41,468 nucleotides of DNA, from the IMG/VR virus record IMGVR_UViG_2541047699_000015; one strand, written 5' to 3'. Positions 8,807 through 28,785 of the stretch are shown here, piece after piece. Positions within the stretch are counted from its first letter, which is position 1. The number at the start of each line of letters is the position of its first letter. The notes under the pieces are model-generated. The model saw only the letters and a list, made by a program, of their open reading frames with translations. It searched no databases and was not told the DNA's origin. Source of the stretch: a virus (taxonomy: Duplodnaviria > Heunggongvirae > Uroviricota > Caudoviricetes). The position numbers and the translations under genes are program-made.

Positions 8807-8828
8807 AAACAAGGCCGCGAAAGCGGCC
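8805..8828 (-). terminator. Rho-independent terminator ending the virion operon
   Basis: Minus-strand hairpin GGCCGC-TTTC-GCGGCC followed by TTGTTTTT. Confidence 0.65.
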
Positions 8829-8829
8829 T

Positions 8830-8841
8830 GTGACATGTCAC
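8830..8841. repeat. Palindrome GTGACATGTCAC, copy 1
   Basis: Perfect 12-bp palindrome; contains stop codon of lipoprotein gene; immediately upstream of terminator in direction of transcription. Confidence 0.8.
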
Positions 8842-9218
8842 GCAACGCAATTATTACCGCGCCATGTAACATTTTTAATAATCTTATCAGCACCAAACTC
8901 AACGTAAACAGAGCAACTGAAATGGAGTGTATAACCGCCATCAGTTGTTGCGTATGTGTTTGAATATATAGTATTACCAATTAGATTAGACGTAGTATTA
9001 TACGTTGTGGTTTGTGGTACGTTATAACTACCAGAGCTTGAGTAAACATACACTCTGTTTCCATCTGGAGATGTAAGCTCTCCCTGAGGATACCCCCACT
9101 GCTGAACCATTGCGTCTATACTCTGCCCGCGCCACGTAAGCATATTTCTTTCAAACTGTGCAGCTGACTGGCATCCAACGAGAAGCATAAATCCAAAAAT
9201 CAAAAATACTTTTCTCAT
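8838..9218 (-). CDS. Lipoprotein at end of virion operon (possible superinfection-exclusion or virion lipoprotein)
   Basis: Start at ATG 9218 with SD AGGGG; signal peptide with lipobox LLVGC; Ser/Thr/Tyr/Asn-rich mature protein. Confidence 0.6.
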   Translation of the reverse strand: MRKVFLIFGFMLLVGCQSAAQFERNMLTWRGQSIDAMVQQWGYPQGELTSPDGNRVYVYSSSGSYNVPQTTTYNTTSNLIGNTIYSNTYATTDGGYTLHFSCSVYVEFGADKIIKNVTWRGNNCVA

Positions 9219-9303
9219 AATTACCCCTATCATGGAAAAACAGCACCAATCCACAAATTAACTAGTTATTTTATTATTCTTCCGAACAATACAATTCCGA
9301 ATA

Positions 9304-9426
9304 CTACAAAGCCGAACCATGCCGCTGCACGCAACAGAGATTCCAATTGAAACCCATTTTTATCAAAATGTATGAATAGCATAAAAACGCTGCACATATT
9401 AGTACAATAAAAGTTATTTGAACCAT
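9304..9426 (-). CDS. Small hydrophobic peptide (about 40 aa), not in ORF track
   Basis: SD AAGGAG immediately after stop of upstream gene, 5 nt before second of tandem ATGs; product MVQITFIVLICAAFLCYSYILIKMGFNWNLCCVQRHGSAL; alternative is track ORF 9266-9454 which lacks an SD. Confidence 0.3.
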   Translation of the reverse strand: MVQITFIVLICAAFLCYSYILIKMGFNWNLCCVQRHGSAL

Positions 9427-9437
9427 CATATCTCCTT

Positions 9438-11912
9438 TTATTGCGGAGTGACATCCTGTGGTCGCCACCAGTATGTCTGGTTAAACTCTTTCTTCGAACG
9501 TTGCTCCATTTTACGCAAATAGCCTGGTGAAAAATACTCCTGCATCTGGTTAAAGATCATGTGATCGAGAGCCGCCTTCAAGTACCAGAGATTCGCACCA
9601 GGCATCAAACCTTTCCCCAGCTTCACCAGATCACCACCAGTCTGCTCACTCTTCCCTTCCACAGCATTTAACGGTATGCCCTGAGCAATCTTCACTACGT
9701 CATCAACCAGACCAGCTACCGGGCCAAGCATCGACGCCAGCGCGCCGCTTCCGTACCTAGTGTGATCTGACAATAAAAAGTCACCGTAAAGGCCAAGACC
9801 ACCACCTTTCAGTAGAGCACCAAGCCAGAATTTTGCGGCATCTTCTCCTGTCATCTCTCGAGGATTACGACCAGACGCAAGGTCGTTAAGTTGCTGCGAC
9901 AAAGCGCCAAGAATGGTCGTACTGGCAATAAACGTCGCAATATATGCCGCACGCCCACCAGCAGACGGCATACCCATAGCGCGTGACCAGTGACGCATAA
10001 CAACCGAGATAGGGAACGATTTAAACAGGAAAACACTTCTCGTTAATTCACCTTTCCATGTTCCACGCTGAATACCAGAACCGGTTATCAGTTGCTCACG
10101 TGCTCCCGGTGTAATAACAGCCATATCAACTTCTTCAGTTACGGCACCGAGCAGTTTACGCATTGCCTCAAATTTCACGCGTTCAGGCTCACCAAGATGT
10201 TTAACTGCTGAATCAGGGATACGCATAATGCTTTCCGGTGTCAGCATCGTATTATTACCGTTCCCCCAGTCCTCCTGTTTCGCCAGCTTCCATACGCTCC
10301 AGTCTGTGTCAGTAATCCCTTTGCTTTTCAGGATACGAAAATCAGAGTCATCGAGGCTACGAAGGTCTGGTGTCCGTGACACTACTTCTCCCAGGCTTCC
10401 CATCATGGTTACGCCATAGGCGCGCTTGTGCGCATCTGACCATGCTGTAAGCCCACTGGCACGCATTACCGCCGTTGCCGCCCAACGAGACACTGACGGC
10501 CCCATATTATCCATCGCCCAGCGGTTAACGCTGCCAAGTAGAGATTCCATCGCCAGACCAGCGCGGCGCGCCCGCGCAAGTTCTGTACGGTTCGTTGGGT
10601 CCATAGCTTCAAGCTGGTTGCGGAATAACTGGTTCATTGGAAGGTTGGTAACCTTCGCAGACAGATACATGGTTCCAAGATCAGAGAACGATGACAGCAA
10701 CGCGGATCCGAGTCTGCTGGCAACCAGCCAGTTGCGGATATTGTCAGACCATCGCGCGATGTGCGGATTCGCTACAGGCTGTGTCTTTCCGGAAATAAAG
10801 TTGTACAGATTCTCTGTGTTGTTCGCCAGCCGCTCGACTTTACCGGTTTTACTCGGGTTAGCTGTTGCCGTTTCTGCCTTCACCTGATCAAGAAGAGAGC
10901 GGAAAACATGATCGGGGTTTGGGCCATATGTTTCCACCAGTGCAATATCTTTACTGATACCTTCCAGGTGACAGACCATGATTTCCCATAGAGAGCGATC
11001 GCCATAAAGTTGCTGATATTGCAGATAGGAATCTGCATCTTTGAAATGTATCTGTCGTGATGCATTACCACGGTTAGCACGTGCGCCGGAAATTCGCATT
11101 CCGGTATCAGTAAGCTTATTCAGCCCACCAGTAGCGATCGTGTTATAAGCCTCTCCAAGAAATGAAGACAACTCTGCATCGTTCATCAGTTGTCCATCGG
11201 CTCGGATATAATATTTGCGATCCAGCTTACCTATAACATCGCTAACCCACTTATCCTTTGATACTGCCCCAACCTTTTCCATAGAATGATGTTGAGGGAT
11301 CCCCCAGTTTTCGAGATAGCCAATGTCCCCACCAGCATCATTAAACCGGCGGCGCAGCAGCTCTGTAACTTCTCTCCACGCCTTAGCACCGTTTCTTGCT
11401 TTAGCATTGCCAGTAGTTTGCCCCCGCATTTCATATACCAGGTCACGTACGCCCGCTTCATCTTCAAACAGACCAAAAAAGCGAGGATCAACTGCTTCGA
11501 ATGCCTCCTGCAATTGACTCAATGCATAATCACGGGTGGCTTTTGTTCTGGATTCAACAGAGAGGAAATTAGATTTACCGTCTGCATTAAAAGCTATAGT
11601 ACGGTTAAGAGCGCCAAGTTTCCCATCAGCCCCTTGATAGCTATTGATAAATTTATCCAATCTCTGACGCGCGGCTATAGTGAGAGCCACACGACGTTTC
11701 TTTAATGCCGCTTCTCGCTGTAATTCTTCAGATGCCAATTGTGCTGCTCGATATAGCCGCTCTGATTCGGAAAGTTGTCGCCACGACATAGGGTCATCAC
11801 GAGCAATGGAGCGCATATTTCGATAAATGCGGTCTTCAATGTTCTGTATTTCTCGCGCCGTTAACATGCGCTGCGCCGCCTGCTGAACCGCTTGTATACA
11901 TTCCTGTCTCAT
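9438..11912 (-). CDS. Internal virion (ejection) protein, T7 gp16 C-terminal-like
   Basis: 824 aa; segments FLFKSFPISVVMRHW and LASMLGPVAGLVDD resemble remembered T7 gp16 C-terminal region. Confidence 0.55.
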   Translation of the reverse strand: MRQECIQAVQQAAQRMLTAREIQNIEDRIYRNMRSIARDDPMSWRQLSESERLYRAAQLASEELQREAALKKRRVALTIAARQRLDKFINSYQGADGKLGALNRTIAFNADGKSNFLSVESRTKATRDYALSQLQEAFEAVDPRFFGLFEDEAGVRDLVYEMRGQTTGNAKARNGAKAWREVTELLRRRFNDAGGDIGYLENWGIPQHHSMEKVGAVSKDKWVSDVIGKLDRKYYIRADGQLMNDAELSSFLGEAYNTIATGGLNKLTDTGMRISGARANRGNASRQIHFKDADSYLQYQQLYGDRSLWEIMVCHLEGISKDIALVETYGPNPDHVFRSLLDQVKAETATANPSKTGKVERLANNTENLYNFISGKTQPVANPHIARWSDNIRNWLVASRLGSALLSSFSDLGTMYLSAKVTNLPMNQLFRNQLEAMDPTNRTELARARRAGLAMESLLGSVNRWAMDNMGPSVSRWAATAVMRASGLTAWSDAHKRAYGVTMMGSLGEVVSRTPDLRSLDDSDFRILKSKGITDTDWSVWKLAKQEDWGNGNNTMLTPESIMRIPDSAVKHLGEPERVKFEAMRKLLGAVTEEVDMAVITPGAREQLITGSGIQRGTWKGELTRSVFLFKSFPISVVMRHWSRAMGMPSAGGRAAYIATFIASTTILGALSQQLNDLASGRNPREMTGEDAAKFWLGALLKGGGLGLYGDFLLSDHTRYGSGALASMLGPVAGLVDDVVKIAQGIPLNAVEGKSEQTGGDLVKLGKGLMPGANLWYLKAALDHMIFNQMQEYFSPGYLRKMEQRSKKEFNQTYWWRPQDVTPQ

Positions 11913-11917
11913 TTAAT

Positions 11918-13720
11918 TTAACCTCTCAAGAAACACGCCACAGCGACATCAAACAGGCTGGAATCCTGTATTGCCTGCTCACTTTCCCTGTTCGCTTCAT
12001 CCAGTGCTTCACGCGCACTGCGCGATTGTGGATTACCATCATCATCCAGCACGGTGATTATCATGTCAGGTGATTCAAGCAGCGAGTCTTCAGCTATGCG
12101 CAAATCAATATCTCCTGCCTGATCTGACATCATTTTTTGTTCTGCCTGTTGCAATATTTTATCAGGCTCAAAAGGAGCTACTTCGTCTGGCGTCCTGACC
12201 TCTGCTGTTTTATAGAATGAAACAGCCTGAGCATTAAGTTCACTTTCTGCCTGCTGTCTCCGAGCCAGTTCTGCTCGAGCTTCAAAAAACTGACCGCCAG
12301 GCTCATGCGGTGCCAACGCGTTACGAGAAAATTCCAGGCGTTCTTGTGCCTGCCGGATTCGTTGGTCAATATCGCGAAGTCTGGCCTGTTTATCTGATCG
12401 AGCACGAGATAAAGCCTTACCGCTACCGGCTGGATCTTCTGCAAGAATTTGTGCGCGCTGTTCAGTGAGATTTTCAATAATTCGTTGGCTATTAGCGATT
12501 TCAGACTGGTAAACCTGTCTATCGCCACGCGGCAAAAGCTGCGCGGCCTGTTCTTCAAGCAACCGATTTTCTATAGCGCGCGCCGTTACTCCATCATCTA
12601 CAGATGACAGAGCCTCATTAACTGCCTGAGACAGCAGACTCTTGCGTCCAGGAATTTCACTGAAAGATGCAGACTCAACAATGCTGGCAACGTCTACAGG
12701 TCTCCCCTGGCTAACATCAGACATGGCTTTTCGCAGAGCCTGAATGTGCGAATTACGCGAAAGCACGTTGATCGGCACGCCGGGAGCAATATCAATTTCA
12801 GCATGATGAGCGGCATTCGCCGCCAGTGCAGCATCGATATCAACTGGTGAAAAATTTGGTGCGCTTGTAGACTCGCCGCGAGAGTTAATAAATCTGCCGA
12901 CACCACCAAACGCCACCCCAAGAACAGCATCAATAGCAATTGCCTGTCGATCCAACACATCATACTGGTTAGCCATTTCGCTATAGCCACCATCACGAAG
13001 CGTTTTTGCAGTAAGCCCACGCTGTGCCATACCGAACGCAATATTTGTACCTGCGGCATAGGCAATATCTGGCGTTGCACGTACTGCTGTTGCTGCGGCG
13101 CGTCGCACTGAACTTTCACCCGTCCGCGCAAGCTGAGCCGCCACACCTTCCGCCAGCGCACCACCAGCACGTAACCCGAGGCTCATAGGGATCAGTGTTC
13201 CGGCACCAGCAGTAATACCCTGCACTAATCCCGCTTCCTGCGCCGTCCTGAAATCAACACCCTGTGCTGTAAGCCGTTCAAACTCAGAAAAACCCTGTAG
13301 AGAAGTTACCGCCGCAGCACCTCCGACCGGACCACCGAGCGTTGTACCGACAACAGCCTGCCCGCCCATATCGAACAACCCATAAAGGACCTGCCCGGCG
13401 GTTCCGGTTGTCGCGGCATCAGGCGTCAGCCGCTTAACCTGCTGCTCTGCTAGTTTTCTCTGCTCAGCAATGTATGAAACTGAAGTGTCATTGATCGAGG
13501 TGTTTTCGTTAACAAACTGAGCAATCGGGGATACGATTTTATCCATCCCTGCCCATAGCAACTGATCTGGCTTTGCCACCAGCCCGGAGTACAAACCAGA
13601 CAATGCCGCTCCTACAGCATTGTCGAAAAAACCAACATCGCTGTTAAAGCCAGCTGGATTTGATGCTGCTTCGTCAAGCTGCTGATTCTGGTTTACTGGA
13701 TTAAGGCCAAAGTAACTCAT
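11918..13720 (-). CDS. Internal virion (ejection) protein, Gly/Ala-rich
   Basis: 600 aa, Gly/Ala-rich N-terminal half and charged coiled-coil C-terminal half; between gp15-like and gp16-like genes; ATGA-type overlap. Confidence 0.5.
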   Translation of the reverse strand: MSYFGLNPVNQNQQLDEAASNPAGFNSDVGFFDNAVGAALSGLYSGLVAKPDQLLWAGMDKIVSPIAQFVNENTSINDTSVSYIAEQRKLAEQQVKRLTPDAATTGTAGQVLYGLFDMGGQAVVGTTLGGPVGGAAAVTSLQGFSEFERLTAQGVDFRTAQEAGLVQGITAGAGTLIPMSLGLRAGGALAEGVAAQLARTGESSVRRAAATAVRATPDIAYAAGTNIAFGMAQRGLTAKTLRDGGYSEMANQYDVLDRQAIAIDAVLGVAFGGVGRFINSRGESTSAPNFSPVDIDAALAANAAHHAEIDIAPGVPINVLSRNSHIQALRKAMSDVSQGRPVDVASIVESASFSEIPGRKSLLSQAVNEALSSVDDGVTARAIENRLLEEQAAQLLPRGDRQVYQSEIANSQRIIENLTEQRAQILAEDPAGSGKALSRARSDKQARLRDIDQRIRQAQERLEFSRNALAPHEPGGQFFEARAELARRQQAESELNAQAVSFYKTAEVRTPDEVAPFEPDKILQQAEQKMMSDQAGDIDLRIAEDSLLESPDMIITVLDDDGNPQSRSAREALDEANRESEQAIQDSSLFDVAVACFLRG

Positions 13721-16230
13721 TGCGGAATATCTCCGGAGAATCTCTGACGCTTCTGTGTCAGATTAAGAACAACGGGAGAACCATCATCTTTCAGCAGATA
13801 ACCAGTACCAAGTTTCACCAGGTACTGACTATCGCCGTAACTTTGCAAACCATACTGACCAGGCGGTGTTTTTATCCCGGAGCCGACAACTTGTTCATTC
13901 CAAGCCTGATTAACCTGCTTATCGAATTGCTCTGCAGACATTCCCCACGGCAAAAGGACATTCCCCATTCCGTTATAGTCATGCACGCCACCTGTAGCTA
14001 CGTTAACAGCCTGTTTCCAGACATCATTGTCAATTTCGCCTGATACCACGCCTTTTTTCGCCATCACACCAGCGTAATAATCCTTTGCGATCTCGTATGC
14101 CATTGATGCGCCCTGAGCGTCACCAGCAAATGCATCCTTCACCATGTCAGAAAACTCAAGGCGAAGATCAGCATCTTTAGGCATCGGAATACCTTTCGCA
14201 TCATCAGTACCTTTACGAGCCGCCGCGCCAGCAAGAATTGTCTGCGCAGCGGTTTCAGGAGACACGGAAACATCCGGATTAAACCAGTTTTTTTCTGCCA
14301 AAATACCACCAGGCTTATCCATCAGTATCCCGGCAACGGCAGCAGATGGAGCGTTGGCACTGATCTGCTGTAGTGCTGACATATACACCTGCCCACCACC
14401 AGTGCTCTGCCTGATGGTATCGAGATATGCTGCCTGTTGGGAAACTGGAGCATCACGAAAGAAAACACCGATCTGATTGGCCTCGTCTTTGGAAAAGAAC
14501 GTCAGTGGAGTGCCATATGACTTAGCAAGGTCACTGACCTGAGCGGCACGCAAGGCAACGCTCTGTCCAAAGTTATCCTTATTGCTCATGTCGATAGGCT
14601 TTGCCTGTCCGGAGGCAAGAGAGAACTGCACAGGATCCGACTGCCGCTGCTTTATCACCTGATTTGCAGCCGAAACAACGTTGTCATAAAGAGTTGCGCG
14701 TGCCGCATACCCCTCCCCTGTATCACCAGTATCCGGGCGTAATTGCTCAACATATGCTGTAATGCTGCTTGTCGGCATGTTGCGGAAAGAGCCTATATAC
14801 TGTCCGGCGATCTGCGTATTCTTAAACTCGGTATATCGCAGGTTTCCTTCTCTGACTCCATAAGCTGCAATAAAATCATCCTCACCAGGTGGGTTAGGAA
14901 ATTCAATGCCACGCATATACGCAGCCGTCGCATCGCGAACCCGGCTGTCGAGCATCGTTTTATATTCAGCCTGCTGTTGTCTGGCTAGTGCATCAGTCTG
15001 TCGCAACACGCTGGCCTGATCTGATTCACTTAAAGCATCGAACCAGGCTACACCGGTATAACGTTTATTTTTTGTCGGTAGCTGAGAAAGCCCCAGCGCA
15101 GCACTAACACCTGCAGTTAACTGCTGATCACTGTATGGCTGGCTACCGTTTTCATGATGGATAATGGCTGCACAAAGCGCCTTCAGGGTATCAGGATTTG
15201 ATGCATCGAGAGGCTCATCAGCAGAAACGCCAAGTTGTTCGCACACTGCTTTGATATACGACATAGTGTCATTTTTATCAGTAGGCGGTGCCCAGCGATT
15301 AATTATCTCGCTGACGGTATCAATACCCTGCCGCTGATACGACATCAGGTTCCGCCCTAATGCACGAATACCGTGTTCAGGGGTTTCGAATTTGGCAAAG
15401 CGACCATCATCACCAGTCTGCCCAACCCACGGATTAGTTTTGCTGTATTCAAGATTGCCGGGGTTATTGTTGCGTATACCGCGGGTACGATCGGAAGAGC
15501 CACTATCTGCTACAGCACGGCGAGAACCAGCAGCAGTATCGCTTAACTCGCCGTTTTGCTGTCTTACCTGAAGATAGTTTGCTCCAATAGCATTTTGAGC
15601 AGTTGCTTTTGCTGTTGCTTCTTTAAACTCGATTTTCTTGGCCTGGATTTGCTCGTCACTCCAGCCATGTGCAATGCCGTAATCCTCAATTTGCTGGAAA
15701 GTTTGCTTATTAGCCAATACGTATGCGGCGTTGTCGCCATACAATGCTGCGGCATTTTTACCATTGTTCAGCAGCGTAGCCTGAAACTGGCCTTCTTCGT
15801 AGGCATTTATTTGCCCTATCTCGTGCCGCCCGGCCTGCGTAGTGAACTGAATGCGCTGCTGCTGCGCCTGCTGCATGAAAGCATTACGAGCCTGTTCATC
15901 CGGCAGCGACATAGCCAGTTGTTCGACCTGAGCATCAAACTGCTGCGTATACTCCTGACCTTTTCCAATAGCATTTTTCCCTTGCAGGTTAAGCAAACCT
16001 GTTTCAGGGTTATTCAGCAGATCGCTGCTTATCTGGCTTAAGCTAAGAGAAGCATCCTGAGCCATAGCAACATTCGCACGCTGTTTTGCCTGCGCAATAA
16101 TACCTGCATATTGCTCTGCAACATCGCCAAGTACATCACCGACATTTGGTGTCTGAAACGATGAGAATCCCTGCGTCGAAATCCCTCTGCTCTGAACCTG
16201 ACGGCCCGATGTTGTTGGTACAACTGGCAT
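13717..16230 (-). CDS. Internal virion protein with central lysozyme-like domain
   Basis: 837 aa; central motif RGIRNNNPGNLEY...WVGQ typical of virion-associated peptidoglycan hydrolase domains; SD AGGGGA before ATG 16230. Confidence 0.5.
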   Translation of the reverse strand: MPVVPTTSGRQVQSRGISTQGFSSFQTPNVGDVLGDVAEQYAGIIAQAKQRANVAMAQDASLSLSQISSDLLNNPETGLLNLQGKNAIGKGQEYTQQFDAQVEQLAMSLPDEQARNAFMQQAQQQRIQFTTQAGRHEIGQINAYEEGQFQATLLNNGKNAAALYGDNAAYVLANKQTFQQIEDYGIAHGWSDEQIQAKKIEFKEATAKATAQNAIGANYLQVRQQNGELSDTAAGSRRAVADSGSSDRTRGIRNNNPGNLEYSKTNPWVGQTGDDGRFAKFETPEHGIRALGRNLMSYQRQGIDTVSEIINRWAPPTDKNDTMSYIKAVCEQLGVSADEPLDASNPDTLKALCAAIIHHENGSQPYSDQQLTAGVSAALGLSQLPTKNKRYTGVAWFDALSESDQASVLRQTDALARQQQAEYKTMLDSRVRDATAAYMRGIEFPNPPGEDDFIAAYGVREGNLRYTEFKNTQIAGQYIGSFRNMPTSSITAYVEQLRPDTGDTGEGYAARATLYDNVVSAANQVIKQRQSDPVQFSLASGQAKPIDMSNKDNFGQSVALRAAQVSDLAKSYGTPLTFFSKDEANQIGVFFRDAPVSQQAAYLDTIRQSTGGGQVYMSALQQISANAPSAAVAGILMDKPGGILAEKNWFNPDVSVSPETAAQTILAGAAARKGTDDAKGIPMPKDADLRLEFSDMVKDAFAGDAQGASMAYEIAKDYYAGVMAKKGVVSGEIDNDVWKQAVNVATGGVHDYNGMGNVLLPWGMSAEQFDKQVNQAWNEQVVGSGIKTPPGQYGLQSYGDSQYLVKLGTGYLLKDDGSPVVLNLTQKRQRFSGDIPQ

Positions 16231-16242
16231 CTTATTATCCCC

Positions 16243-16782
16243 TTATCGACCGGTTGGAGTGCCAACAGCAGCAGAAATCGGCGCAGCCTTCTGAGAGAAC
16301 GGGCTCCACGTTCCGCCGCCCATCTGGTATGCACCGTATGCTTTTAGTGGTGCCGTTAACAAAGTGCTGGTCATCGATGATTTAGCAGCCGACTGAGCAG
16401 CAGCCCCCTGTGCCTGAGCATTCATTCCCTGAACCTGATACCCATATGCCTCACGCTGAGCATTATTCACTGTCGTTAACGCATCAAGAGTGCCGAACTG
16501 AGCATTATCCGCAAAAACGTCAAGAGCTGTTCCGCTACTTAATTCCGCACCGGTAGCCCCCATAGTGGCCGCCGCAGTGCCTGAGCGTTGACGCATTTCA
16601 CGACGACGCTGATCCGCTTCAATATTCCCACGATTGATTGAATCCTGTGCCTGAGCTTCAGCAATTTCAGCATTCCGATCAGCTATGGCTGACTGGTATT
16701 TTGCCTGCTTGCTCTGGCTGTACATTGACGCGGCTGTGGATGCCACTGTGACGGCAACCAAAGCGATGGCTGGGTTACACAT
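16243..16782 (-). CDS. Internal virion protein B (T7 gp14-like)
   Basis: 179 aa; C-terminus APISAAVGTPTGR matches remembered T7 gp14 C-terminus APIVAAKGTKTGR; Ala/Gln-rich. Confidence 0.6.
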   Translation of the reverse strand: MCNPAIALVAVTVASTAASMYSQSKQAKYQSAIADRNAEIAEAQAQDSINRGNIEADQRRREMRQRSGTAAATMGATGAELSSGTALDVFADNAQFGTLDALTTVNNAQREAYGYQVQGMNAQAQGAAAQSAAKSSMTSTLLTAPLKAYGAYQMGGGTWSPFSQKAAPISAAVGTPTGR

Positions 16783-20645: not shown

Positions 20646-20661
20646 ATACACTCCTGCAATA

Positions 20662-20679
20662 AAGGGGCCGAAGCCCCTT
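20662..20679 (-). other. Stable RNA hairpin (UUCG tetraloop) between capsid-proximal and tail genes
   Basis: Minus-strand AAGGGGC-TTCG-GCCCCTT followed by weak U run (TATTG); possible partial terminator or processing/stability element. Confidence 0.45.
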
Positions 20680-20695
20680 GTCTGATCCGCGAGGC

Positions 20696-21031: not shown

Positions 21032-21041
21032 CAATATCACC

Positions 21042-21479: not shown

Positions 21480-21494
21480 CTTCTTTCTCCATTA

Positions 21495-21514
21495 GTGGGT
21501 CTGTTACGACCCAC
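21495..21514 (-). other. RNA hairpin between capsid and downstream gene
   Basis: GTGGGTC-loop-GACCCAC, no U tract; possible RNase III/processing site. Confidence 0.35.
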
Positions 21515-21530
21515 AGGTTAATAACAGGCG

Positions 21531-22517: not shown

Positions 22518-22531
22518 TGTCATTTCCTCTC

Positions 22532-23227
22532 TTATTTGCCATAGAGCACTTCGGCCGCACTACGCTGGCCTTCATTACCACCGGTGACCATGCCATCTTC
22601 AGACATCGCCTTTCCGATTCTCACGAACGTTTTGACCAGATCAGGGTGATTACCCAGCCCGGTGGTGTTCAGATATTCTTTGAGTTCAGGTGTCCCGAAC
22701 TGGTCAAGCGCACGCTGTGCGACGCTAAGGTTAGAAATCAACTTGCCGCCACCGATTTCTTTGTCAGCTTTTACATCCGCAGCCCACTGCTCGGTTGTTT
22801 TCTGCCAGGCTTCTGCCTGGCGCTGCTGAACACCTGCCAGAATCTTCGGATAAGCATCAACCAGCTTTTGCGCTTGCTCGTTGGTCAGGTTAAGTTCTCG
22901 CGCCACCGGCTCGAATTCCTTCAACGCTTCTGTATCCAGCTCTACGCCTTCGGCAGCCTGAAACTCGTACTTCTCAGGCGCACCCTCTGGTTTATCGCCG
23001 TCCTTTTTTTCACCCTGCTTATCGTTTTCAGGCTTTTTGTCATCAGCAGGTTTATCGCCATCAGCAACAGGTTGTGGCTTATCACCTTCCGGTTGTGATG
23101 GATCACCAACTGGAGCAGGGTTATCACCTGCAGGCGCTGACGGTTCTGACGCAGCCGGAGCTGCTCCACCATCGACTGGTTGCTCATTGCAAAGACGGCG
23201 ATACAGCAAACGCTCAAATAAATTCAT
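22532..23227 (-). CDS. Scaffolding protein
   Basis: Highly acidic low-complexity N-terminal region (PAG/DKP repeats) and helical C-terminus, between portal and capsid genes; SD AGGAG before ATG 23227. Confidence 0.6.
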   Translation of the reverse strand: MNLFERLLYRRLCNEQPVDGGAAPAASEPSAPAGDNPAPVGDPSQPEGDKPQPVADGDKPADDKKPENDKQGEKKDGDKPEGAPEKYEFQAAEGVELDTEALKEFEPVARELNLTNEQAQKLVDAYPKILAGVQQRQAEAWQKTTEQWAADVKADKEIGGGKLISNLSVAQRALDQFGTPELKEYLNTTGLGNHPDLVKTFVRIGKAMSEDGMVTGGNEGQRSAAEVLYGK

Positions 23228-23229
23228 GA

Positions 23230-23526
23230 TCACTCCTGTTCACTGGCCTCTTTGGCCATCTTCAAATACTGTTCAGGGCAATGCGCCATAACGCGCTGAA
23301 ACAGTTCCAGCGCCAGATTGCGTTGCCCCTCATTAAATGCCATTGCCATAGCGTCCATCGGTGAGATAGCGGAAAACACACGGCCTTTCTCCAGCACCGA
23401 CCAGACAACGCGACGCCCCTGTTCACTGCTCATGACAAAGCAAATGTCATCAATTTCACGCTGTGCCATGTCACGTTGCTTACGGGCGTTTTCTTCTTTC
23501 AGTTGATCGTCTTCGTAATCTGTCAT
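23230..23526 (-). CDS. Small acidic head-module protein
   Basis: 98 aa, start overlaps portal stop (ATGA). Confidence 0.5.
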   Translation of the reverse strand: MTDYEDDQLKEENARKQRDMAQREIDDICFVMSSEQGRRVVWSVLEKGRVFSAISPMDAMAMAFNEGQRNLALELFQRVMAHCPEQYLKMAKEASEQE

Positions 23527-25202
23527 TGTGATTGCCCACCCTGACCACTAACTGCATTCGCCATAGCTGACAAAACACTCGGATCCGAAGTTTTAGCTTC
23601 GCTTAGCGTCTTGGCACCCTGTGCCGCCGCCATCCCCATCGCCATCATTTGTTGCTGCTGTTGTTGCTGTGCCCGTTGCTGGCGAGCCTGCTCAACCTGT
23701 TCCTGCGGAACAATGACGGTTGGAGACACTCCGGACATATCAGCGAATGCATCGATCGCCTGATCAACGTTGAGTTTGTCGAGAGCTTCTGGTTTCGCTT
23801 GCGCAAGTTGACCAATGAAGTTGACCGTAGACGCCAGACTGGACAGGCCGATAGACTTCTGCGCCTGAGCCATGACGGAAATGTATTCGACCTTCAGGGG
23901 CATACCTTCCATCACGTCAGGCGGTGGCGGCAGCATGTTTTTACGCACCATCATCGAGAAAGCGCGGTCAATGAGAGGATTAAGACATTCGTCGTTCAGA
24001 CGCTCCAGAACCGGCCCCAACATCAGAAGTTTTTCTTCTTTCATTTCGATCACCGCTTCAACAGGCATCGAGCGGGTATTGATGTTCTGCAACATCATGA
24101 ACAGATCGACAAAGTAGGCGCTGTTAATGATTTGACGGGTGTCCTGAATGTCTGCCACCAAATCTGCTGTACTGGGGTTAACCAGATAAGCAGGCCTGAA
24201 ACCATCCTGACCAGTAATCAGATCGATATACGTGATGTCGCCAGGAAGAAGGGAGGCACGCTGATTCTTGAGGGAAGTCGGAGCAACCATCGGCGGATTG
24301 GTGGCTTTATCAATCAACTGCGACTTGCGCTTCTGGAGAAGCTGCAATGCCTTAACAGGTCCAAGCGCCAGCATACCCGGGCATGATGATCCATAAACAT
24401 CTTCGCCGTTAACTTCCCAGCGCGGAGCCATAATTGGAAACTCATCGAATCCGGACTCACGCAACAACTTGTCGTTATCGCCACCAACCTCGTAATAAAC
24501 CGATTTGAATGGCTTGTTCTTGCTATCCAGCTTCGATGTATCGCGGTCAATGTTCGGGTAAACCGAATGCATCACTTCAATCCACTTCTCGTAGGTTCCG
24601 CTTTCCCACATGCTTTTTACGGATTCGCTGACGTTATTTAGCCCGAACTCCTGAACAAGCTGACGAACAGTCATAGAGAACTTGCGAAAACAGGTGTCCA
24701 CACTGCCACGAGGTGAGTTAGCCAGGTAGTAACTGCCTATCGGGAATGGCATTGTGCGAATGATGTCCTCGTCATCCTCCAGCACTGCCATTGCACCAGT
24801 GCTGTATGTGCCGAGGCTTCCGTATAACTGCGGCAGCGACTGATAGAGATTCGACTTATTGAACATATCGTTCATGCGGTTCTGCACCGCCTCAAGCCAC
24901 AACTTAACAGGGCCATAATCCATCATTTCAGGATCTGGCGTAGCCAGGCGAAACCACGGACGCGCGGGGCTTGTGATGCCTGACATCATGCCGCTGGCGA
25001 GAGTGCGCGCCGCCATAGTCCCGGTCGAATCAATAATGCGTGTATTGCGTCGATCGTTACGGTTGACCTCAGAAGTCAGAAAGCGGGAACCACGCGGGTT
25101 GATGTAATCACTCAACTCGCGCCAGTGCGGCTCGAACGACTGACGCTCGCTTTCAAGTTGTGCGAACTGTTTGTTCAATCGCTCTTTAGTTGTTTCCGCC
25201 AT
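23523..25202 (-). CDS. Portal protein
   Basis: 559 aa, position upstream of scaffold and capsid, Gln/Ala-rich C-terminal tail; SD GGAG 8 nt before ATG 25202. Confidence 0.65.
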   Translation of the reverse strand: MAETTKERLNKQFAQLESERQSFEPHWRELSDYINPRGSRFLTSEVNRNDRRNTRIIDSTGTMAARTLASGMMSGITSPARPWFRLATPDPEMMDYGPVKLWLEAVQNRMNDMFNKSNLYQSLPQLYGSLGTYSTGAMAVLEDDEDIIRTMPFPIGSYYLANSPRGSVDTCFRKFSMTVRQLVQEFGLNNVSESVKSMWESGTYEKWIEVMHSVYPNIDRDTSKLDSKNKPFKSVYYEVGGDNDKLLRESGFDEFPIMAPRWEVNGEDVYGSSCPGMLALGPVKALQLLQKRKSQLIDKATNPPMVAPTSLKNQRASLLPGDITYIDLITGQDGFRPAYLVNPSTADLVADIQDTRQIINSAYFVDLFMMLQNINTRSMPVEAVIEMKEEKLLMLGPVLERLNDECLNPLIDRAFSMMVRKNMLPPPPDVMEGMPLKVEYISVMAQAQKSIGLSSLASTVNFIGQLAQAKPEALDKLNVDQAIDAFADMSGVSPTVIVPQEQVEQARQQRAQQQQQQQMMAMGMAAAQGAKTLSEAKTSDPSVLSAMANAVSGQGGQSQ

Positions 25203-25216
25203 TTCAATGACTCCGG

Positions 25217-25423
25217 TTACTGACCAAGCAGCGTTTTACCGCTGGTATTAGCAGTTGATGTGTCGCCCTGAGAACCGGTAAGCAGCGTAGAACTACGACC
25301 AGCAGCAGCGCGACGGCGACGAGTTTCTTCGTCGCGGGCATCAACAACGGCGGCATCCTGCTCCTGTGGTGCTGCCTGAACTTCTGGTGTTGCAGGCACT
25401 GATGGTGAGCTACCCATGCACAT
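25217..25423 (-). CDS. Small protein upstream of portal
   Basis: SD GGAG 8 nt before ATG 25423; its translation-initiation region CGGAGTCATTGA is duplicated in front of the portal gene. Confidence 0.5.
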   Translation of the reverse strand: MCMGSSPSVPATPEVQAAPQEQDAAVVDARDEETRRRRAAAGRSSTLLTGSQGDTSTANTSGKTLLGQ

Positions 25424-25491
25424 ATCAATGACTCCGTACGCAATTAAATTATTACCAATTTAACCACATATGATTTATTTATCGTAGACAG

Positions 25492-25529
25492 TTGACATTT
25501 AACGCGCGAATTATTACCTTTCAGGTAAC
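25492..25529 (+). promoter_or_regulatory. Promoter (-35 TTGACA) with overlapping operator ATTACCTTTCAGGTAAC upstream of tRNA
   Basis: TTGACA at 25492-25497; operator 25513-25529 covers -10/+1 region. Confidence 0.5.
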
Positions 25530-25850
25530 CAAAGAGTTCATTCCGGTTACTAACCTGACTGGCTTGTCGTTAAATTGAACAGGTGGAGTGAGCTTTTATT
25601 TTGAGCAGTACGGCGTATGGCACATGCGCCGATAGCGGTCTGGATGCGTTTAAGGGGCACCCTCCCTGGCTGTGGCAAACGAACCAGGTAGCCGGAATGT
25701 GCAAGTCGAGCGGTTTTATTCCGCGCACGGGGATTCACCATCCCGGCGATTCGGTGTGACGCCTCGGAAGAGACGAGGGTACAACGATGAGAGCATTTAT
25801 GGAGCCGCGACAAAGTGTGGCGCCTTAACAGGCTAAGTGCTCTCAGCGTT

Positions 25851-25927
25851 GTGGCATTAGCTCAGTTGGACAGAGCAACCGCCTTCTAAGCGGTTGGTCG
25901 CAGGTTCGAATCCTGCATGCCACGCCA
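25851..25927 (+). tRNA. tRNA-Arg (anticodon UCU), phage-encoded argU-like
   Basis: Cloverleaf read by eye: acceptor stem GTGGCAT/ATGCCAC, D-arm GCTC...GAGC, anticodon stem ACCGC/GCGGT with loop CTTCTAA (anticodon TCT at 25885-25887), T-arm GCAGG-TTCGAAT-CCTGC, discriminator G, encoded CCA. Confidence 0.9.
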
Positions 25928-25970
25928 GAATCACGCCTAAGGACCGTGATGCCAGAAGTTCCAGGTGCTT

Positions 25971-26012
25971 GGCGGTGATGGTTTCCCTTGAAGGACTATC
26001 ACCGCCCTTTTT
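25971..26012 (+). terminator. Terminator after tRNA
   Basis: Hairpin GGCGGTGAT...ATCACCGCC followed by CTTTTT. Confidence 0.55.
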
Positions 26013-26090
26013 ACAGCAGGACGCCATTGCGATGACTTCATGCTGTAAACCAGTACAGCCACGGAAGGCATAACTCATTGCTTCCAGTTC

Positions 26091-26114
26091 GCCCGGTTCG
26101 CCGGGCATTTTTTT
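26091..26114 (+). terminator. Second terminator immediately before RBS of gene 26126
   Basis: Hairpin GCCCGG-TTCG-CCGGGC followed by ATTTTTTT. Confidence 0.65.
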
Positions 26115-26125
26115 AAGGTGAGATT

Positions 26126-26548
26126 ATGAAAACAGCCGACATGCTAGCTAAATATCTAAATGAATGGCCGTGCAAATATGTACGCATTGTTCAGGGTGAT
26201 GACTCAATTTTTTATGGTGTTTTTGCAGGAAATGAAATGCTTTGTGAAGCAATTCCAGGTGAGCGACTTGCCGGGTTAACGCTTAGCGATGACCATGGAA
26301 TAGGAGTTACTTGCCATGACTGGATTTCAGCGCAGAAAACTGAAATGGAAAAAGGCAATGTGTTTGATATTTCTCGCGCTGTATACGCCAAAGAAAAAAG
26401 TGATGATGATTACATGCGCGAAAACTTATACAACATGAAGTTACAATGCCTGGCTGAAGTGCTTAGTAAAAGATCTTTACTTGATGTGGTTGGTGCTGAG
26501 CAGGACGCCAAGGCAATCAACGCCGCATTCGATAAAATAACCTTCTAA
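26126..26548 (+). CDS. Hypothetical moron protein (140 aa)
   Basis: SD AAGGTGAG before ATG 26126; opposite strand to flanking late genes; no family recognised. Confidence 0.6.
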   Translation: MKTADMLAKYLNEWPCKYVRIVQGDDSIFYGVFAGNEMLCEAIPGERLAGLTLSDDHGIGVTCHDWISAQKTEMEKGNVFDISRAVYAKEKSDDDYMRENLYNMKLQCLAEVLSKRSLLDVVGAEQDAKAINAAFDKITF

Positions 26549-26552
26549 CGCC

Positions 26553-26564
26553 GTGACATGTCAC
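26553..26564. repeat. Palindrome GTGACATGTCAC, copy 2
   Basis: Perfect copy 4 nt after stop of gene 26126-26548 and 5 nt before terminator. Confidence 0.8.
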
Positions 26565-26569
26565 AATCA

Positions 26570-26593
26570 GCCCGCCGATTCGCGGGCTTTTTT
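26570..26593 (+). terminator. Rho-independent terminator of moron
   Basis: Hairpin GCCCGC-CGATTC-GCGGGC followed by T6; overlaps stop codon of terminase large subunit on the other strand. Confidence 0.7.
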
Positions 26594-28067
26594 ATGCAAA
26601 AGGATCATAGTCTGTGATGGCTTTGCCTTGCTGGTTCTGCTGCCCAGGAATTCGCAGACGCTTCGACACAGGGAAAGCAAACGTCAGCAGTAGCGCATCG
26701 CCTTTACCCGGCGAACGCCCAAGCCGCTCCTTGATATCTTCCTTCGGTTCGATAACGATTTTACCGTCCACACGAACTTTGTACTCTGCTGCCGACAGGT
26801 CGTCCGCTGTTTCCTGGTCATCCAGCATGCCGCCGAGCCTCAGCCATGTCTTGCATGAGTTGAACATCTCCCCACGCTTGTTGAGCATCTGCGGGTCAGT
26901 AGACGCGCCACCGAACGGAACAAGTTGCCATGTACGACCCCAGCCGTCACCGATTGACTTCAAACCGGTTCCGTAACCGAAGTCGATGAACACCGCGTCA
27001 GCCTGATACTGGTCTTCAAAGTCAGCGATACGCTTCGCCATAATCAGATCGTCGGTAGTCTTGTTGCCAGTCCACAGCACCTTACTGTGTAGCCCCTGCC
27101 GCAGGTATATCACAGCGTCATCAACGCCGGAGTATGCCGGGTCAACGCCGATTATCACCGGAGCATGTGCAACCTGCGCAGCGGTTACCACCCGTTTCAT
27201 TGCCTCGTCAGTAAGACCGGTAGGGATAAACTGCAATTCAGATGCATCAGGGAATATGCCGCGCACACGGATTTTAACGAAGTCGCTATCTTCCCCGTAG
27301 TCATCAACCCATTTCTGCAACTGCTGTTTGTTAGTGCCTTCCACCGTCCGGCTGTCAATCTGCGCAGTTTTCCAGCGGTGTTTATATTTGCGGAAACATT
27401 CGCGGAAACGCCCGGTGTTACGTGTAGGGTTTCCGAACGCTACCCAGATAATCTCAGTGTCTTCGTCCGTAAGCGCACCCTCAGCAACTTCCCACACCAG
27501 ATCCGCAATGTTCGACGCTTCATCGAATACCACGATGATGCGTTTGCGCTCGTTGTGTAGTCCGGCGAACGCCTCAGTGTTGTGCTCAGACCAGGGGATT
27601 GCGTCAGCTCGCCACCGCTTGTCGTGCCCAGGGTCATTGCTGTACATCGCGGTAGCGGTACAGGTAAACCAGTCTTTCGTGATAGCAAGGTTTGACCACT
27701 TGATAATTTCCGGCCAGGTCTTCGTTCGTAGCTGGTTGTCGGTGTTGGCGGTCACCACGACCTTACAATCCTCGCAAGTGGACATGCCCCAGTTGATCAG
27801 CATTGAGATGAATGCGGATTTACCAATACCGTGACCAGAAGCACGTGCCAGCATAAGCGGCTGATATCGCGTCTCTGGATTCTGCAGGTGATCACGTATC
27901 TCTCGGAACGCATCAGCCTGCCACTGACGTGGGCCGGTGGCATGTGCCAGTTCAGTCCCCTCTTCCCCCCATGGGAACGCATAGAGGGCATAGCCAAGCG
28001 GATCGTGAGTGAACCCTGCAATATCCTCGATTAACTGCTCTTCAGGAGATAACGCTGTATCTGTCAC
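26592..28067 (-). CDS. Terminase large subunit
   Basis: 491 aa; Walker A-like ASGHGIGKSAF; acidic nuclease-type C-terminal half; overlaps small subunit gene by 4 nt. Confidence 0.8.
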   Translation of the reverse strand: MTDTALSPEEQLIEDIAGFTHDPLGYALYAFPWGEEGTELAHATGPRQWQADAFREIRDHLQNPETRYQPLMLARASGHGIGKSAFISMLINWGMSTCEDCKVVVTANTDNQLRTKTWPEIIKWSNLAITKDWFTCTATAMYSNDPGHDKRWRADAIPWSEHNTEAFAGLHNERKRIIVVFDEASNIADLVWEVAEGALTDEDTEIIWVAFGNPTRNTGRFRECFRKYKHRWKTAQIDSRTVEGTNKQQLQKWVDDYGEDSDFVKIRVRGIFPDASELQFIPTGLTDEAMKRVVTAAQVAHAPVIIGVDPAYSGVDDAVIYLRQGLHSKVLWTGNKTTDDLIMAKRIADFEDQYQADAVFIDFGYGTGLKSIGDGWGRTWQLVPFGGASTDPQMLNKRGEMFNSCKTWLRLGGMLDDQETADDLSAAEYKVRVDGKIVIEPKEDIKERLGRSPGKGDALLLTFAFPVSKRLRIPGQQNQQGKAITDYDPFA

Positions 28068-28663
28068 TGATTGCCATCCTGACGTTCTTTCAGTCTCTTC
28101 CTGGCTGCCGCTATGCGATCAGCAATTGTCACATTCACATTAACATCCAGGCGTTCTTTGAATGCGTTGACGTCGACGTGCTTACCAATCAGTTCGAGGT
28201 TCTTCACCTTGTCAGGCCATTTAATTTTTTTGAGGATGCCAACCAGCTCTTTCTCGTCTCCACGGCCTTCGAACATGTCGGCCAGTTCGAAACCTGTCAG
28301 GTACTGCCGCCAGACCTTAGGCCATTCCGAGACCGGCTTGATGCTCATATCGTCGTTGAGAATGTCAATCACGTCCATCTGGTCGATCTCCACCAGGCGC
28401 ATGAGAACGTAATCAGCACTGACGCGCATTCGTTTGTTGCGCTCCTCCATCAACTCGGCAATCCGTTTTTGAATGCGTTCATCGCGCATCATGACACTGG
28501 CTTTAACTGCCGCTGTATTTGGGGAGAATCCTGCGTTAATCGCTGCCTGAGTCTGGTTTTCAGGCGTTTTGATGTATGACTGGCAATAAGCCTCCTGCAT
28601 TGCTGTTAGTGGCTTAAATTGCGTTGATTTGCGTTTATAGGTTTTAGGTTCAGCAGGCATCAT
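28064..28663 (-). CDS. Terminase small subunit
   Basis: About 200 aa directly upstream of and overlapping large subunit; start at tandem ATG 28663/28660 (track start 28741 is TTG). Confidence 0.65.
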   Translation of the reverse strand: MMPAEPKTYKRKSTQFKPLTAMQEAYCQSYIKTPENQTQAAINAGFSPNTAAVKASVMMRDERIQKRIAELMEERNKRMRVSADYVLMRLVEIDQMDVIDILNDDMSIKPVSEWPKVWRQYLTGFELADMFEGRGDEKELVGILKKIKWPDKVKNLELIGKHVDVNAFKERLDVNVNVTIADRIAAARKRLKERQDGNQ

Positions 28664-28696
28664 AACCACCGTGGTAATAGTTACCGTTGTGGTAAT
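28662..28696. promoter_or_regulatory. Tandem operators at start of late (terminase) operon
   Basis: GTTACCGTTGTGGTAAT (28680-28696) and ATAACCACCGTGGTAAT (28662-28678), the latter overlapping the terS start codon. Confidence 0.55.
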
Positions 28697-28704
28697 AGTA
28701 CCAT

Positions 28705-28732
28705 GCAAAATAAAGCCGCCATAGTTGGCGGC
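28705..28732 (-). terminator. Terminator between early operon and terminase genes
   Basis: Minus-strand hairpin GCCGCC-AACTAT-GGCGGC followed by TTTATTTTG. Confidence 0.6.
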
Positions 28733-28773
28733 AGTATTCAAAACCCATCAAATTCATCATGCATAACCCACTC

Positions 28774-28785
28774 GTGACATGTCAC
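28774..28785. repeat. Palindrome GTGACATGTCAC, copy 3
   Basis: Perfect copy containing the TGA stop of gene 28782-29123, about 40 nt upstream of terminator 28705-28732. Confidence 0.8.

Follow-up and report, generated by a model that had tools for sequence, protein, structure and literature searches.

A 12-bp palindrome accompanying the gp49/gp46-family gene of epsilon15-like phages: a candidate protein-site pair at the ends of transcription units

The palindrome and its genomic surroundings

The stretch of DNA analyzed here (the window, 41,468 nucleotides) is an epsilon15/phiV10-like (Uetakevirus) genome, in which the 12-bp palindrome GTGACATGTCAC is present in three exact copies (8830-8841, 26553-26564 and 28774-28785). 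The copies are surrounded by the following genes and elements.

8802-8829, minus strand: intrinsic terminator of the structural (late) operon, with a stem at 8829-8812 followed by a T-run; gap to copy 1 of 0 nt (terminator scan)
8830-8841: copy 1 of GTGACATGTCAC, which holds the TGA of the gene that ends the late operon and directly adjoins the terminator of this operon
8838-9218, minus strand: small lipoprotein gene (PHROG 3716), with its stop codon within copy 1
26126-26548, plus strand: moron ORF of 140 aa (PHROG 4846), converging on terL
26553-26564: copy 2, 4 nt past the stop codon of the 140-aa moron ORF (plus strand) and 4 nt ahead of a terminator hairpin
26569-26596, plus strand: intrinsic terminator of the tRNA-Arg/moron unit, with a stem at 26569-26588; gap to copy 2 of 4 nt (terminator scan)
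28662-28696: two operator-like ATTACC-N5-GGTAAT sites, a motif distinct from the palindrome, directly upstream of terS
28705-28732, minus strand: intrinsic terminator between the early-right operon and terS, with a stem at 28732-28715; gap to copy 3 of 41 nt (terminator scan)
28774-28785: copy 3, overlapping the stop codon (TGA) of the gp49-family gene, with which the early-right operon ends
28782-29120, minus strand: gp49-family gene (PHROG 536; listed ORF 28782-29123), encoding the 112-aa candidate binding protein

The original prediction, which placed each of the three copies just upstream of an intrinsic terminator, was confirmed by these gaps, which are far beyond chance. For copy 2, which comes after the tRNA-Arg/140-aa ORF unit, the statement holds only for the converging moron transcript; in the late-gene direction this copy follows the terL hairpin, the structure at 26569-26588 that also lies directly after terL on the other strand, where it has no U-tract. 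The predicted overlaps with stop codons were likewise borne out: the TGA in copy 1 closes the lipoprotein ORF (listed as 8838-9254, minus strand, with a probable start at Met13 of the listed ORF), which encodes a signal peptide and an LLVGC lipobox, and the TGA included in copy 3 belongs to the minus-strand ORF 28782-29123. The longer sequence said to be common to copies 2 and 3 was recovered as cGTGACATGTCACaat. The position equivalent to the operator-like sites at 28662-28696 is an annotated repressor site in the epsilon15 record.

Only the palindrome and its 1-nt shifts, an iteron array and one other 12-mer occur at least three times in the window, and a window scan detected a single one-mismatch version of GTGACATGTCAC, at 23463 within a coding region. 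In dinucleotide-preserving shuffles (n=200) a mean of 0.28 12-mers reached three or more copies and no palindromic 12-mer did so. A chance origin was rejected on these grounds, and the 12-bp palindrome is real and non-random.

Several known types of element were considered and rejected. A CRP-binding site (TGTGA-N6-TCACA) has similar TGTGA/TCACA-like arms, but its pentamers are 6 apart and those of the palindrome 4 (the TGTGA/GTGAC arms here are separated by 2-4 bp, not 6), and CRP sites belong to catabolite-controlled promoters, whereas the palindrome is conserved with a phage gene; its exclusion on the basis of spacing in the original prediction was correct. A promoter-like match over copy 3 (GTGACA-18-CATGAT) was dismissed since such matches occur at chance frequency (4 found, 4.0 expected); its -10 part lies on a deletion scar that relatives with a 70-aa ORF at this place do not have, and the promoter scan gave no such match at copies 1 and 2. 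In Uetakevirus and Vibrio K303 the sites lie near terS. A packaging (pac) or replication site was rejected because in ZF40 they are remote from the terminase genes and because N15 and the P2-like phages are of the cos type.

Conservation in Uetakevirus and linkage to the gp49/gp46-family gene

Three syntenic copies are also present in epsilon15, SPN1S and PAS61. Equivalents of copy 1 were located in epsilon15 (19517), phiV10 (19493), Tyrion (20377), SPN1S (19662) and 66FD (30404), and those of copy 2 in epsilon15 (2142), phiV10 (2262), Tyrion (2702) and SPN1S (2174), as well as in 66FD (7540), where the center is CT. Single sites are dispensable, since copy 3 of phiV10 carries one mismatch and TL-2011b has no exact copy 2. 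Across Uetakevirus the three copies are kept at syntenic positions while their flanks diverge. The search of related phages that the original prediction had proposed found the motif in place, with a variable position relative to terminators: the distance is 0, 4 and 41 nt in the window, 22-24 nt in epsilon15 and Tyrion, and anywhere between 0 and over 200 nt in relatives, 24 of which (all epsilon15-like) carry the 70-aa ORF between copy 3 and the terminator.

The motif accompanies the gene at 28782-29120 (minus strand), a member of the epsilon15 gp49/phiV10 p55/N15 gp46 family (PHROG 536), which comprises 222 clusters at 50% identity and is distributed over phages and prophages of Enterobacterales, Vibrio and Aeromonas. 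The TGA of the family gene lies within the motif in epsilon15-like (80 of 87 loci), N15-like (50 of 50) and Yersinia P2-like phages (48 of 55), and the overlap was found in 22 of 35 species-representative genomes; in the three lineages, whose proteins are just 32-42% identical, the motif begins at -1 of the stop codon. Among bacterial genomes carrying the gene, dereplicated by species, an exact GTGAC-N2-GTCAC was present within 10 kb of it at 34 of 35 loci, compared with about 0.02 per locus expected by chance. Unrelated carriers of the gene have sites as well, namely myovirus ZF40 (three), siphovirus N15 (three, GTGACTGGTCAC), Vibrio K303 (three) and a Yersinia phage (one), while lambda and P2 have neither a homolog of the family gene nor an exact site. 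In the reverse test, a family homolog was encoded within 32 of 120 viral-contig chunks that had been chosen solely for TGTGACATGTCACA. The half-sites are invariant and the spacer is 2 bp at all cognate sites in every lineage; each lineage has its own central dinucleotide, in step with the predicted beta-strand class of the protein, a match that is confounded by phylogeny. Taken together, these sequence comparisons indicate that the gene-plus-site pair travels together through many unrelated phages.

This linkage bears on the suggestion in the original prediction that the palindrome is a module-boundary recombination sequence, i.e. that phages exchange cassettes by crossing over within the shared 12-mer. 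The suggestion fits the breaks in similarity between relatives, which coincide with the motif edges at all three positions, and is consistent with the insertion or deletion of an accessory ORF beside copy 3, with the arc-ant insertion upstream of copy 1 in TL-2011b and with the identical 12-mer in the unrelated phage ZF40. However, the motif has no associated recombinase, 12 bp is very short for homology-driven exchange, and sharp similarity breaks are expected beside any selected intergenic element. In addition, a crossover sequence would need neither invariant half-sites with a free center nor linkage to one gene, and it would leave unexplained the several intragenic copies in annotated ORFs of ZF40 and N15. 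Recombination is thus a highly improbable explanation of the palindrome.

Predicted fold of the 112-aa protein and comparison with MatP/matS

AlphaFold2 with a shallow alignment yielded a pLDDT of 63 and meaningless Foldseek matches, and a deeper alignment was used instead, from which a ribbon-helix-helix fold followed by a C-terminal Cys4 module was predicted for the 112-aa protein. The predicted beta-strand-helix-helix unit of about 45 residues corresponds to that of the ribbon-helix-helix proteins (Arc/MetJ/CopG), MatP-matS is among the fold matches, and the N-terminus is arginine-rich. Dimers of this class insert a two-stranded beta-ribbon into the major groove of a symmetric or repeated operator, a mode with which the perfect 12-bp palindrome and the link of its central dinucleotide to the beta-strand class are indirectly consistent. 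At the sequence level, Pfam returned no match at E<0.01 and no ribbon-helix-helix model, NCBIfam a weak and not significant match to the CopG-type YbfE (E=0.068), and a PDB sequence search nothing significant; the curated superfamily sequence model of ribbon-helix-helix proteins did not recognize the protein, and the only match in the BFVD fold library was a fragment of the same protein. None of the 12-mers was found in the papers searched, and the ZX5 paper covers the repressor, antirepressor and integrase only. The operators of Arc and Mnt of P22 and of the CopG/MetJ superfamily overlap the promoters that are repressed, upstream of the regulated genes. In contrast, the phage sites studied here lie at the 3' ends of genes and operons, one of them on the stop codon of the putative regulator, and the 112-aa protein differs from this superfamily in having no Pfam ribbon-helix-helix match and an extra Cys4 module.

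A parallel in DNA sequence is offered by matS, whose consensus is GTGACRNYGTCAC, 13 bp in length (PMC6907758). GTGAC and GTCAC half-sites are common to matS and the palindrome, MatP has a ribbon-helix-helix domain like that predicted for the phage protein, and in both systems a few sites are dispersed over the replicon. Dimers of the phage protein could bridge dispersed sites or nucleate complexes that loop the replicating genome, with gene ends being merely harmless places for such sites. Yet the phage site is a 12-mer with a 2-bp spacer in every lineage, as opposed to the 3-bp spacer of matS, so that none of the cognate phage sites conforms to the 13-bp consensus. Homology to MatP was rejected (hhalign probability 0.1%), and MatP_N and MatP_C, which Pfam detects in E. 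coli MatP, gave no match in the phage protein; the latter has a Cys4 module in place of the four-helix bundle and coiled coil. Moreover, unlike in MatP/matS, the protein is phage-encoded with one site fused to the stop codon of its own gene, and three sites per 40 kb are few for condensing a genome. A MatP-like architectural role is consequently improbable.

Alternatively, a conserved host factor, MatP or another, might bind the sites instead of the phage protein, which would agree with half-sites that equal those of matS and are invariant across such divergent phage proteins. This would leave unexplained that many lineages have the site at the stop codon of one and the same phage gene, and that it is lacking in lambda and P2. 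Furthermore, the spacer is 1 bp off matS in every lineage (a true 13-bp matS-like site was seen only once, in Vibrio K303), and the central dinucleotide tracks the class of the phage protein. Recognition by a host factor is therefore very unlikely. We consider it most probable, on the basis of sequence and predicted structure, that the 112-aa protein of the phage itself recognizes GTGAC-NN-GTCAC in double-stranded DNA, the two forming a cognate pair.

Position of the sites and possible output of binding

In N15, ZF40 and the Vibrio phages the cognate sites lie before ribosome-binding sites or within ORFs, not beside terminators. A terminator was present within about 50 nt of 61 of 269 distinct site contexts, compared with 41 of 600 random positions. 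Of 230 distinct sites, 119 have a TGA that terminates a frame of 60 codons or more, versus 11% of random TGAs, and a long open frame spans 25% of sites versus 71% of random positions. As judged from these contexts, a position next to a terminator is specific to the genus and variable in spacing, and represents neither a general rule nor a fixed geometry. The original prediction had also envisaged a protein-binding element modulating termination or antitermination. The protein-binding part is supported by the co-occurrence and co-variation of the motif with a gene of predicted DNA-binding fold, while the role in termination is weakened because the spacing is not fixed, because sites in N15, ZF40 and the Vibrio phages lie off terminators and because so small a fraction of contexts is terminator-proximal.

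A specific form of the latter role would be a late switch, in which the gp49-family protein loads onto RNA polymerase at the site and acts as a Q-like antiterminator for terS-terL and the structural genes. The order of regulator gene (last of the early-right operon), site, terminator and terS resembles that of lambda Q, qut, tR' and late genes, a PHROG search of the early-right operon found no Q- or N-like protein and hence no other candidate for the switch, and copies 1 and 3 lie ahead of terminators in the late direction. Nevertheless, copy 2 comes after the terL hairpin in this direction, antitermination at copy 1 would drive polymerase antisense into the converging cassette, and the distance from site to terminator varies, with the 70-aa ORF intervening in relatives. 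As suggested by the operator-like sites immediately before terS and gp3, the late units would be served by promoters of their own. The element bound by Q belongs to a late promoter followed by a pause site, whereas the palindromes are not overlapped by any conserved promoter; the GTGACA-18-CATGAT match at copy 3 is of a kind that occurs at chance frequency and lies on a deletion scar. Lambda Q is unrelated to the 112-aa protein in sequence and fold, and the gene belongs to PHROG 536 and not to a Q family. Unlike in Q/qut, further copies are found at operon ends, and N15 and ZF40 carry the family gene in addition to their own Q-like gene. Q-type antitermination is accordingly an unlikely function.

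Intrinsic terminators consist of a G+C-rich hairpin with a U-tract right behind it, and the palindrome is not part of them, since it lies outside their stems at a varying distance and alone folds at only -1.2 kcal/mol. It could still act as RNA if the transcribed palindrome formed a small hairpin for stability, processing or translational control: the copies are transcribed at operon ends in the window, the site precedes a start codon by 9-31 nt in N15, the Vibrio phages and 24 epsilon15-like relatives, and the protein N-terminus is rich in arginine. However, the hairpin is marginal and no better than in shuffles. Its stem does not vary from lineage to lineage and shows no compensatory changes, and conservation extends to positions 5 and 8, which could not normally pair across a loop of only 2 nt. 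A dimer on duplex DNA would instead fit both the perfect two-fold symmetry and the predicted fold, and an element acting at the RNA level has very little probability.

The explanation favored overall, which we regard as reasonably probable and whose weight lies mainly on the cognate pair, is that of a protein-site pair with a boundary role. The 112-aa protein, made last from the early-right operon, would form a ribbon-helix-helix dimer on the palindrome, with its beta-ribbon over the center and conserved basic residues and/or the Cys4 module reading the invariant GTGAC half-sites. Gene and site are linked through one site on the gene's own stop codon, with one or two more elsewhere in the genome, and each of the three sites marks a 3' boundary, namely that of the early operon, of the terS-terL/moron junction or of the structural operon. 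There the bound dimer, separate from the terminators themselves, might be a roadblock or insulator that, during lytic growth, limits transcription beyond the end of a unit or into a converging one. This output of binding is proposed tentatively. Placement just upstream of a working terminator looks redundant for a roadblock, and with the N15, ZF40 and Vibrio sites lying away from terminators, binding may have a different output from phage to phage or may be unrelated to transcription. It is rather unlikely, though conceivable, that a self-linked gene-plus-site module with a MatP-like ribbon-helix-helix protein marks the ends of transcription units and represents the missing early-to-late switch of the Q-less epsilon15-like phages or a genome-folding device, acting from operon 3' ends and not from promoters.

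If binding is confirmed, a function together with a precise, testable operator would be assigned to an uncharacterized family that has no Pfam model and that also occurs in serotype-converting phages of Salmonella and in phages that serve for O157 typing. Comparison with MatP/matS would then extend to a second ribbon-helix-helix protein with possible recognition of GTGAC half-sites, and in genome annotation the motif could be flagged as a companion of PHROG 536. Likewise, the unusual placement of an operator at the stop codon of its regulator gene and at the ends of operons would point to control or organization from 3' boundaries, and would provide a concrete handle on late-gene control in epsilon15-like phages.

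Copies of the palindrome in the window and its relatives

The window represents a temperate podovirus of the epsilon15/phiV10 type (genus Uetakevirus), with its late genes on the minus strand, and is 97% identical to PAS61, phiv142-3, TL-2011b and phiV10 across most of its length. The original prediction, that the 12-bp palindrome GTGACATGTCAC occurs three times and always just upstream of an intrinsic terminator, was confirmed in our analysis by the positions of the copies, by shuffled sequences, by a terminator scan and by the overlap of copies with TGA codons. However, although all three copies adjoin a terminator, copy 2 follows the terL hairpin in the late direction.

Exact copies of GTGACATGTCAC in the window, with the adjoining terminators found by the terminator scan
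Copy 1, 8830-8841: end of the structural operon, ahead of the converging accessory cassette; terminator stem 8829-8812, minus strand, abutting the copy
Copy 2, 26553-26564: between terL and the converging tRNA-Arg/moron unit; terminator 26569-26588, plus strand, 4 nt past the copy
Copy 3, 28774-28785: end of the early-right operon, ahead of terS; terminator 28732-28715, minus strand, 41 nt past the copy

No other exact copy was found in the window, and the single copy with one mismatch (23463) lies within a coding region. As had also been proposed, copies 2 and 3 carry a longer common sequence, cGTGACATGTCACaat, while copy 1 contains the stop codon of a lipoprotein gene (138-aa ORF 8838-9254, minus strand, with a signal peptide and an LLVGC lipobox) and copy 3 that of ORF 28782-29123 (minus strand). 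Only seven 12-mers, counted on either strand, were seen at least three times in the window, namely the palindrome and its 1-nt shifts (three), with an iteron array and one more 12-mer providing the rest; 200 shuffles that preserved dinucleotides yielded 0.28 such 12-mers on average and not a single palindromic one. The iteron-like array (34067-34198) is presumably the replication origin. It falls within the replication-initiator gene (33688-34503, minus strand) and is composed of ATCCCGTTTTTGGGATCATTCAAC (2.6 units, period 24), TCCCGTTTTCGGGTATAT (2.8 units) and TGGTTAAATGAC (2.4 units). The 12-mer CGCAGTGCCTGA is present in three copies on one strand (16573, 29817 and 31085), two of them inside the adjacent ORFs 29387-30274 and 30484-31113, which both have PHROG 60 among their matches, and the third within ORF 16243-16782; its repetition may reflect paralogy plus chance.

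With regard to the units that meet at these copies, ORF 8051-8563 of the accessory cassette converging on copy 1 has a weak match to the YafO toxin (Pfam E=9.5e-4, short of the curated cutoff), and a YafO-family toxin is annotated at the equivalent position of TL-2011b. The plus-strand tRNA-Arg/moron unit is wedged as a whole between terL and the portal operon; at 25851-26110, two terminator-like hairpins (25971-26006 and 26091-26106) separate tRNA-Arg(TCT) from the moron ORF 26126-26548.

The palindrome is conserved in the relatives of this phage. Epsilon15, whose structural genes are just ~74% identical to those of the window, carries GTGACATGTCAC at the three matching positions (2142, 19517 and 39612), SPN1S and PAS61 have likewise kept all three, and Tyrion has two copies within its record and a third spanning the record ends. 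Copy 3 of phiV10 has one mismatch, copy 2 of 66FD has CT as its centre, and an exact copy 2 was not found in TL-2011b. The flanks in these relatives diverge around an unchanged 12-mer. The palindrome is not annotated in the records of epsilon15 and phiV10, and a literature search for its sequence found no paper containing GTGACATGTCAC. In SPN1S (locus L318, 26722-26733), a copy with one mismatch, GTGACATGTCAT, covers the stop codon of the Rz-like gene that closes the lysis cassette and could be a degenerate boundary copy, the fourth in that phage, of which a counterpart is absent from the window.

Linkage of the site to a PHROG 536 gene

The gene whose stop codon is covered by copy 3 encodes 112 aa and is a member of PHROG 536 (labelled 'transcriptional regulator') and of the family of epsilon15 gp49, phiV10 p55 and N15 gp46, which tblastn located in 154 phage records (Vibrio, Escherichia, Salmonella, Klebsiella, Yersinia, Aeromonas, Pectobacterium and others). 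The motif is also present in gene-carrying phages with unrelated virions. Thus, the myovirus ZF40, whose protein is 66% identical, has three exact copies, one of them 3 nt past the stop of the gene, and the siphovirus N15, with a 35% identical protein, has GTGACTGGTCAC three times, at the stop codon of gene 46, inside repA, and in the interval separating gene 33 from the anti-repressor operon leader. In a Yersinia P2-like phage, GTGACGCGTCAC covers the stop codon of the homologous gene, and Vibrio phage K303 has GTGAC(AC/GC)GTCAC three times. Among the viral contigs that were fetched, the first base of the motif falls at -1 relative to the stop codon (G-TGA-C) in 80 of 87 epsilon15-like, 50 of 50 N15-like and 48 of 55 Yersinia-type cases. 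Moreover, in an independent set of 35 homolog-encoding loci, one genome per species, 34 had one or more exact GTGAC-N2-GTCAC sites within 10 kb (chance ~0.02 per locus), and in 22 loci a site starts at stop -1. In the reverse test, 32 of 120 viral-contig chunks that had been chosen solely for TGTGACATGTCACA (mean length ~9.5 kb) encoded a homolog within the chunk. Both a homolog and an exact site are absent from lambda and P2. The motif therefore travels with one gene, that of the PHROG 536 family.

This linkage would be left unexplained if the sites were bound by a host factor, which we regard as very unlikely. The same applies to a recombination boundary, which would account for the breaks in similarity at the motif edges but not for the conservation pattern either, and which appears about as doubtful. 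The hosts of the gene-carrying phages and prophages are nearly all Enterobacterales, Vibrio and Aeromonas, the exceptions being one N15-type match titled Limoniibacter and one from an unclassified Pseudomonadota MAG. Bacteria that possess MatP, the organiser of the Ter macrodomain in E. coli, and its 13-bp site matS belong to roughly this same group.

Gene ends, terminators and a second motif

The adjacency of motif and terminator proved real within the genus when relatives were compared, but it is not general and its geometry is not fixed. The gap measures 0, 4 and 41 nt in the window, but for copy 3 it is 22-24 nt in epsilon15 and Tyrion, and 24 close relatives carry a 70-aa ORF (peptide MPKIRYDLEDMRDNS...FYDEFDGL) in the interval from copy 3 to the terminator. 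In the window, the gap of 41 nt (28733-28773) is a deletion scar of this ORF, from which the promoter-like match GTGACA-18-CATGAT also stems. In N15, the Vibrio phages and the 24 relatives with the 70-aa ORF, the site ends 9-31 nt ahead of a start codon, and some copies in ZF40 and N15 lie within annotated ORFs. A terminator-like element was present within ~50 nt of 61 of 269 distinct site contexts, compared to 41 of 600 random positions, an enrichment that comes mostly from Uetakevirus-type copies. At 119 of 230 distinct sites, the TGA within the site terminates an open frame 60 or more codons long, compared to 11% of random TGAs, and just 25% of sites, but 71% of random positions, are spanned by a long open frame. 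The general feature of the site is consequently its position at gene ends, not its adjacency to terminators.

In addition, the 17-bp palindrome ATTACC-N5-GGTAAT, with at most two mismatches, occurs 14 times in the window compared to 1.2 expected.

Sites of ATTACC-N5-GGTAAT in the window
5725, 6106, 7680, 25513, 28662, 28680, 32791, 32853, 34799, 35184, 35896, 35958: sites
2727, 4836: weaker sites

These sites lie ahead of terS, gp3 and the tailspike region and flank the repressor/cro pair on both sides; the equivalent sites in the epsilon15 record are annotated as predicted repressor sites. Since the late units each start with this operator-like motif and end with GTGACATGTCAC and a terminator, the genome appears to be built of units with one motif first and the other last.

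Probable site recognition and a proposed boundary element

All ten positions of the half-sites GTGAC/GTCAC are invariant across lineages, while the central dinucleotide is lineage-specific and varies with the type of protein segment found opposite window residues ~20-30 in the alignment.

Protein segment and centre of the site
xK(h)ELxLD: AT
(T/S)RRDW(V/I)LE: TG
NE(I/V)RxRLE: GC
QELRLKVS: AC, GC or CC

This correlation, which is confounded by phylogeny, is as would be expected if the beta-ribbon of a ribbon-helix-helix protein reads the centre. An RNA element seems highly improbable, as its hairpin would be weak (a mere -1.2 kcal/mol for the 12-mer as RNA) and covariation is absent, with no compensatory stem changes between lineages in the 12-mer; both observations speak for a symmetric dimer that recognises duplex DNA. 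Some 21-25 nt downstream of the full GTGACGCGTCAC, Yersinia P2-like loci (L008, 8468-8520; L139-L190) carry a partial second site that reads GTGACGCG or GCGCGTCAC, depending on the phage. Likewise, N15 has a half-site GTCAC 27 nt past the repA copy, and in Vibrio phages the site is followed at a distance of 26 nt by GGTCAC or by GTGACGGTCAC, which has a 1-bp spacer. These partial sites suggest that a second dimer or a monomer might bind cooperatively.

Taken from the genomic association of gene and site, the gp49-family protein and the palindrome probably form a cognate pair, in which we infer that the protein binds as a ribbon-helix-helix dimer. It would be produced as early transcription ends and would then sit on all three unit boundaries, where the bound protein would limit transcription leaving one unit for the next or for a converging unit. 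Such a boundary element is a tentative proposal for the output of binding. A Q-like late switch would fit the gene order, and no Q- or N-like protein was found in the early-right operon; however, the position of copy 2, the consequence of read-through at copy 1, the variable spacing and the presence of the family gene alongside Q-like genes in N15 and ZF40 make this role of the protein unlikely. We consider an architectural role like that of MatP similarly improbable. MatP contacts matS (consensus GTGACRNYGTCAC; PMC6907758) through a ribbon-helix-helix domain, and matS shares the GTGAC/GTCAC half-sites of the phage site, but its spacer is 3 bp rather than 2 bp and the phage protein has no detectable homology to MatP. 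One true 13-bp matS-consensus site, GTGACACCGTCAC, is found beside the three 12-bp sites of Vibrio phage K303 (locus L009, 19491-19503).

Small DNA-binding phage proteins with palindromic operators are a known kind, while this protein family is uncharacterised and its pairing with the palindrome appears to be unreported. The placement of an operator at operon ends and on the stop codon of its own regulator gene would be unusual, and the identity of its half-sites to those of matS is striking.
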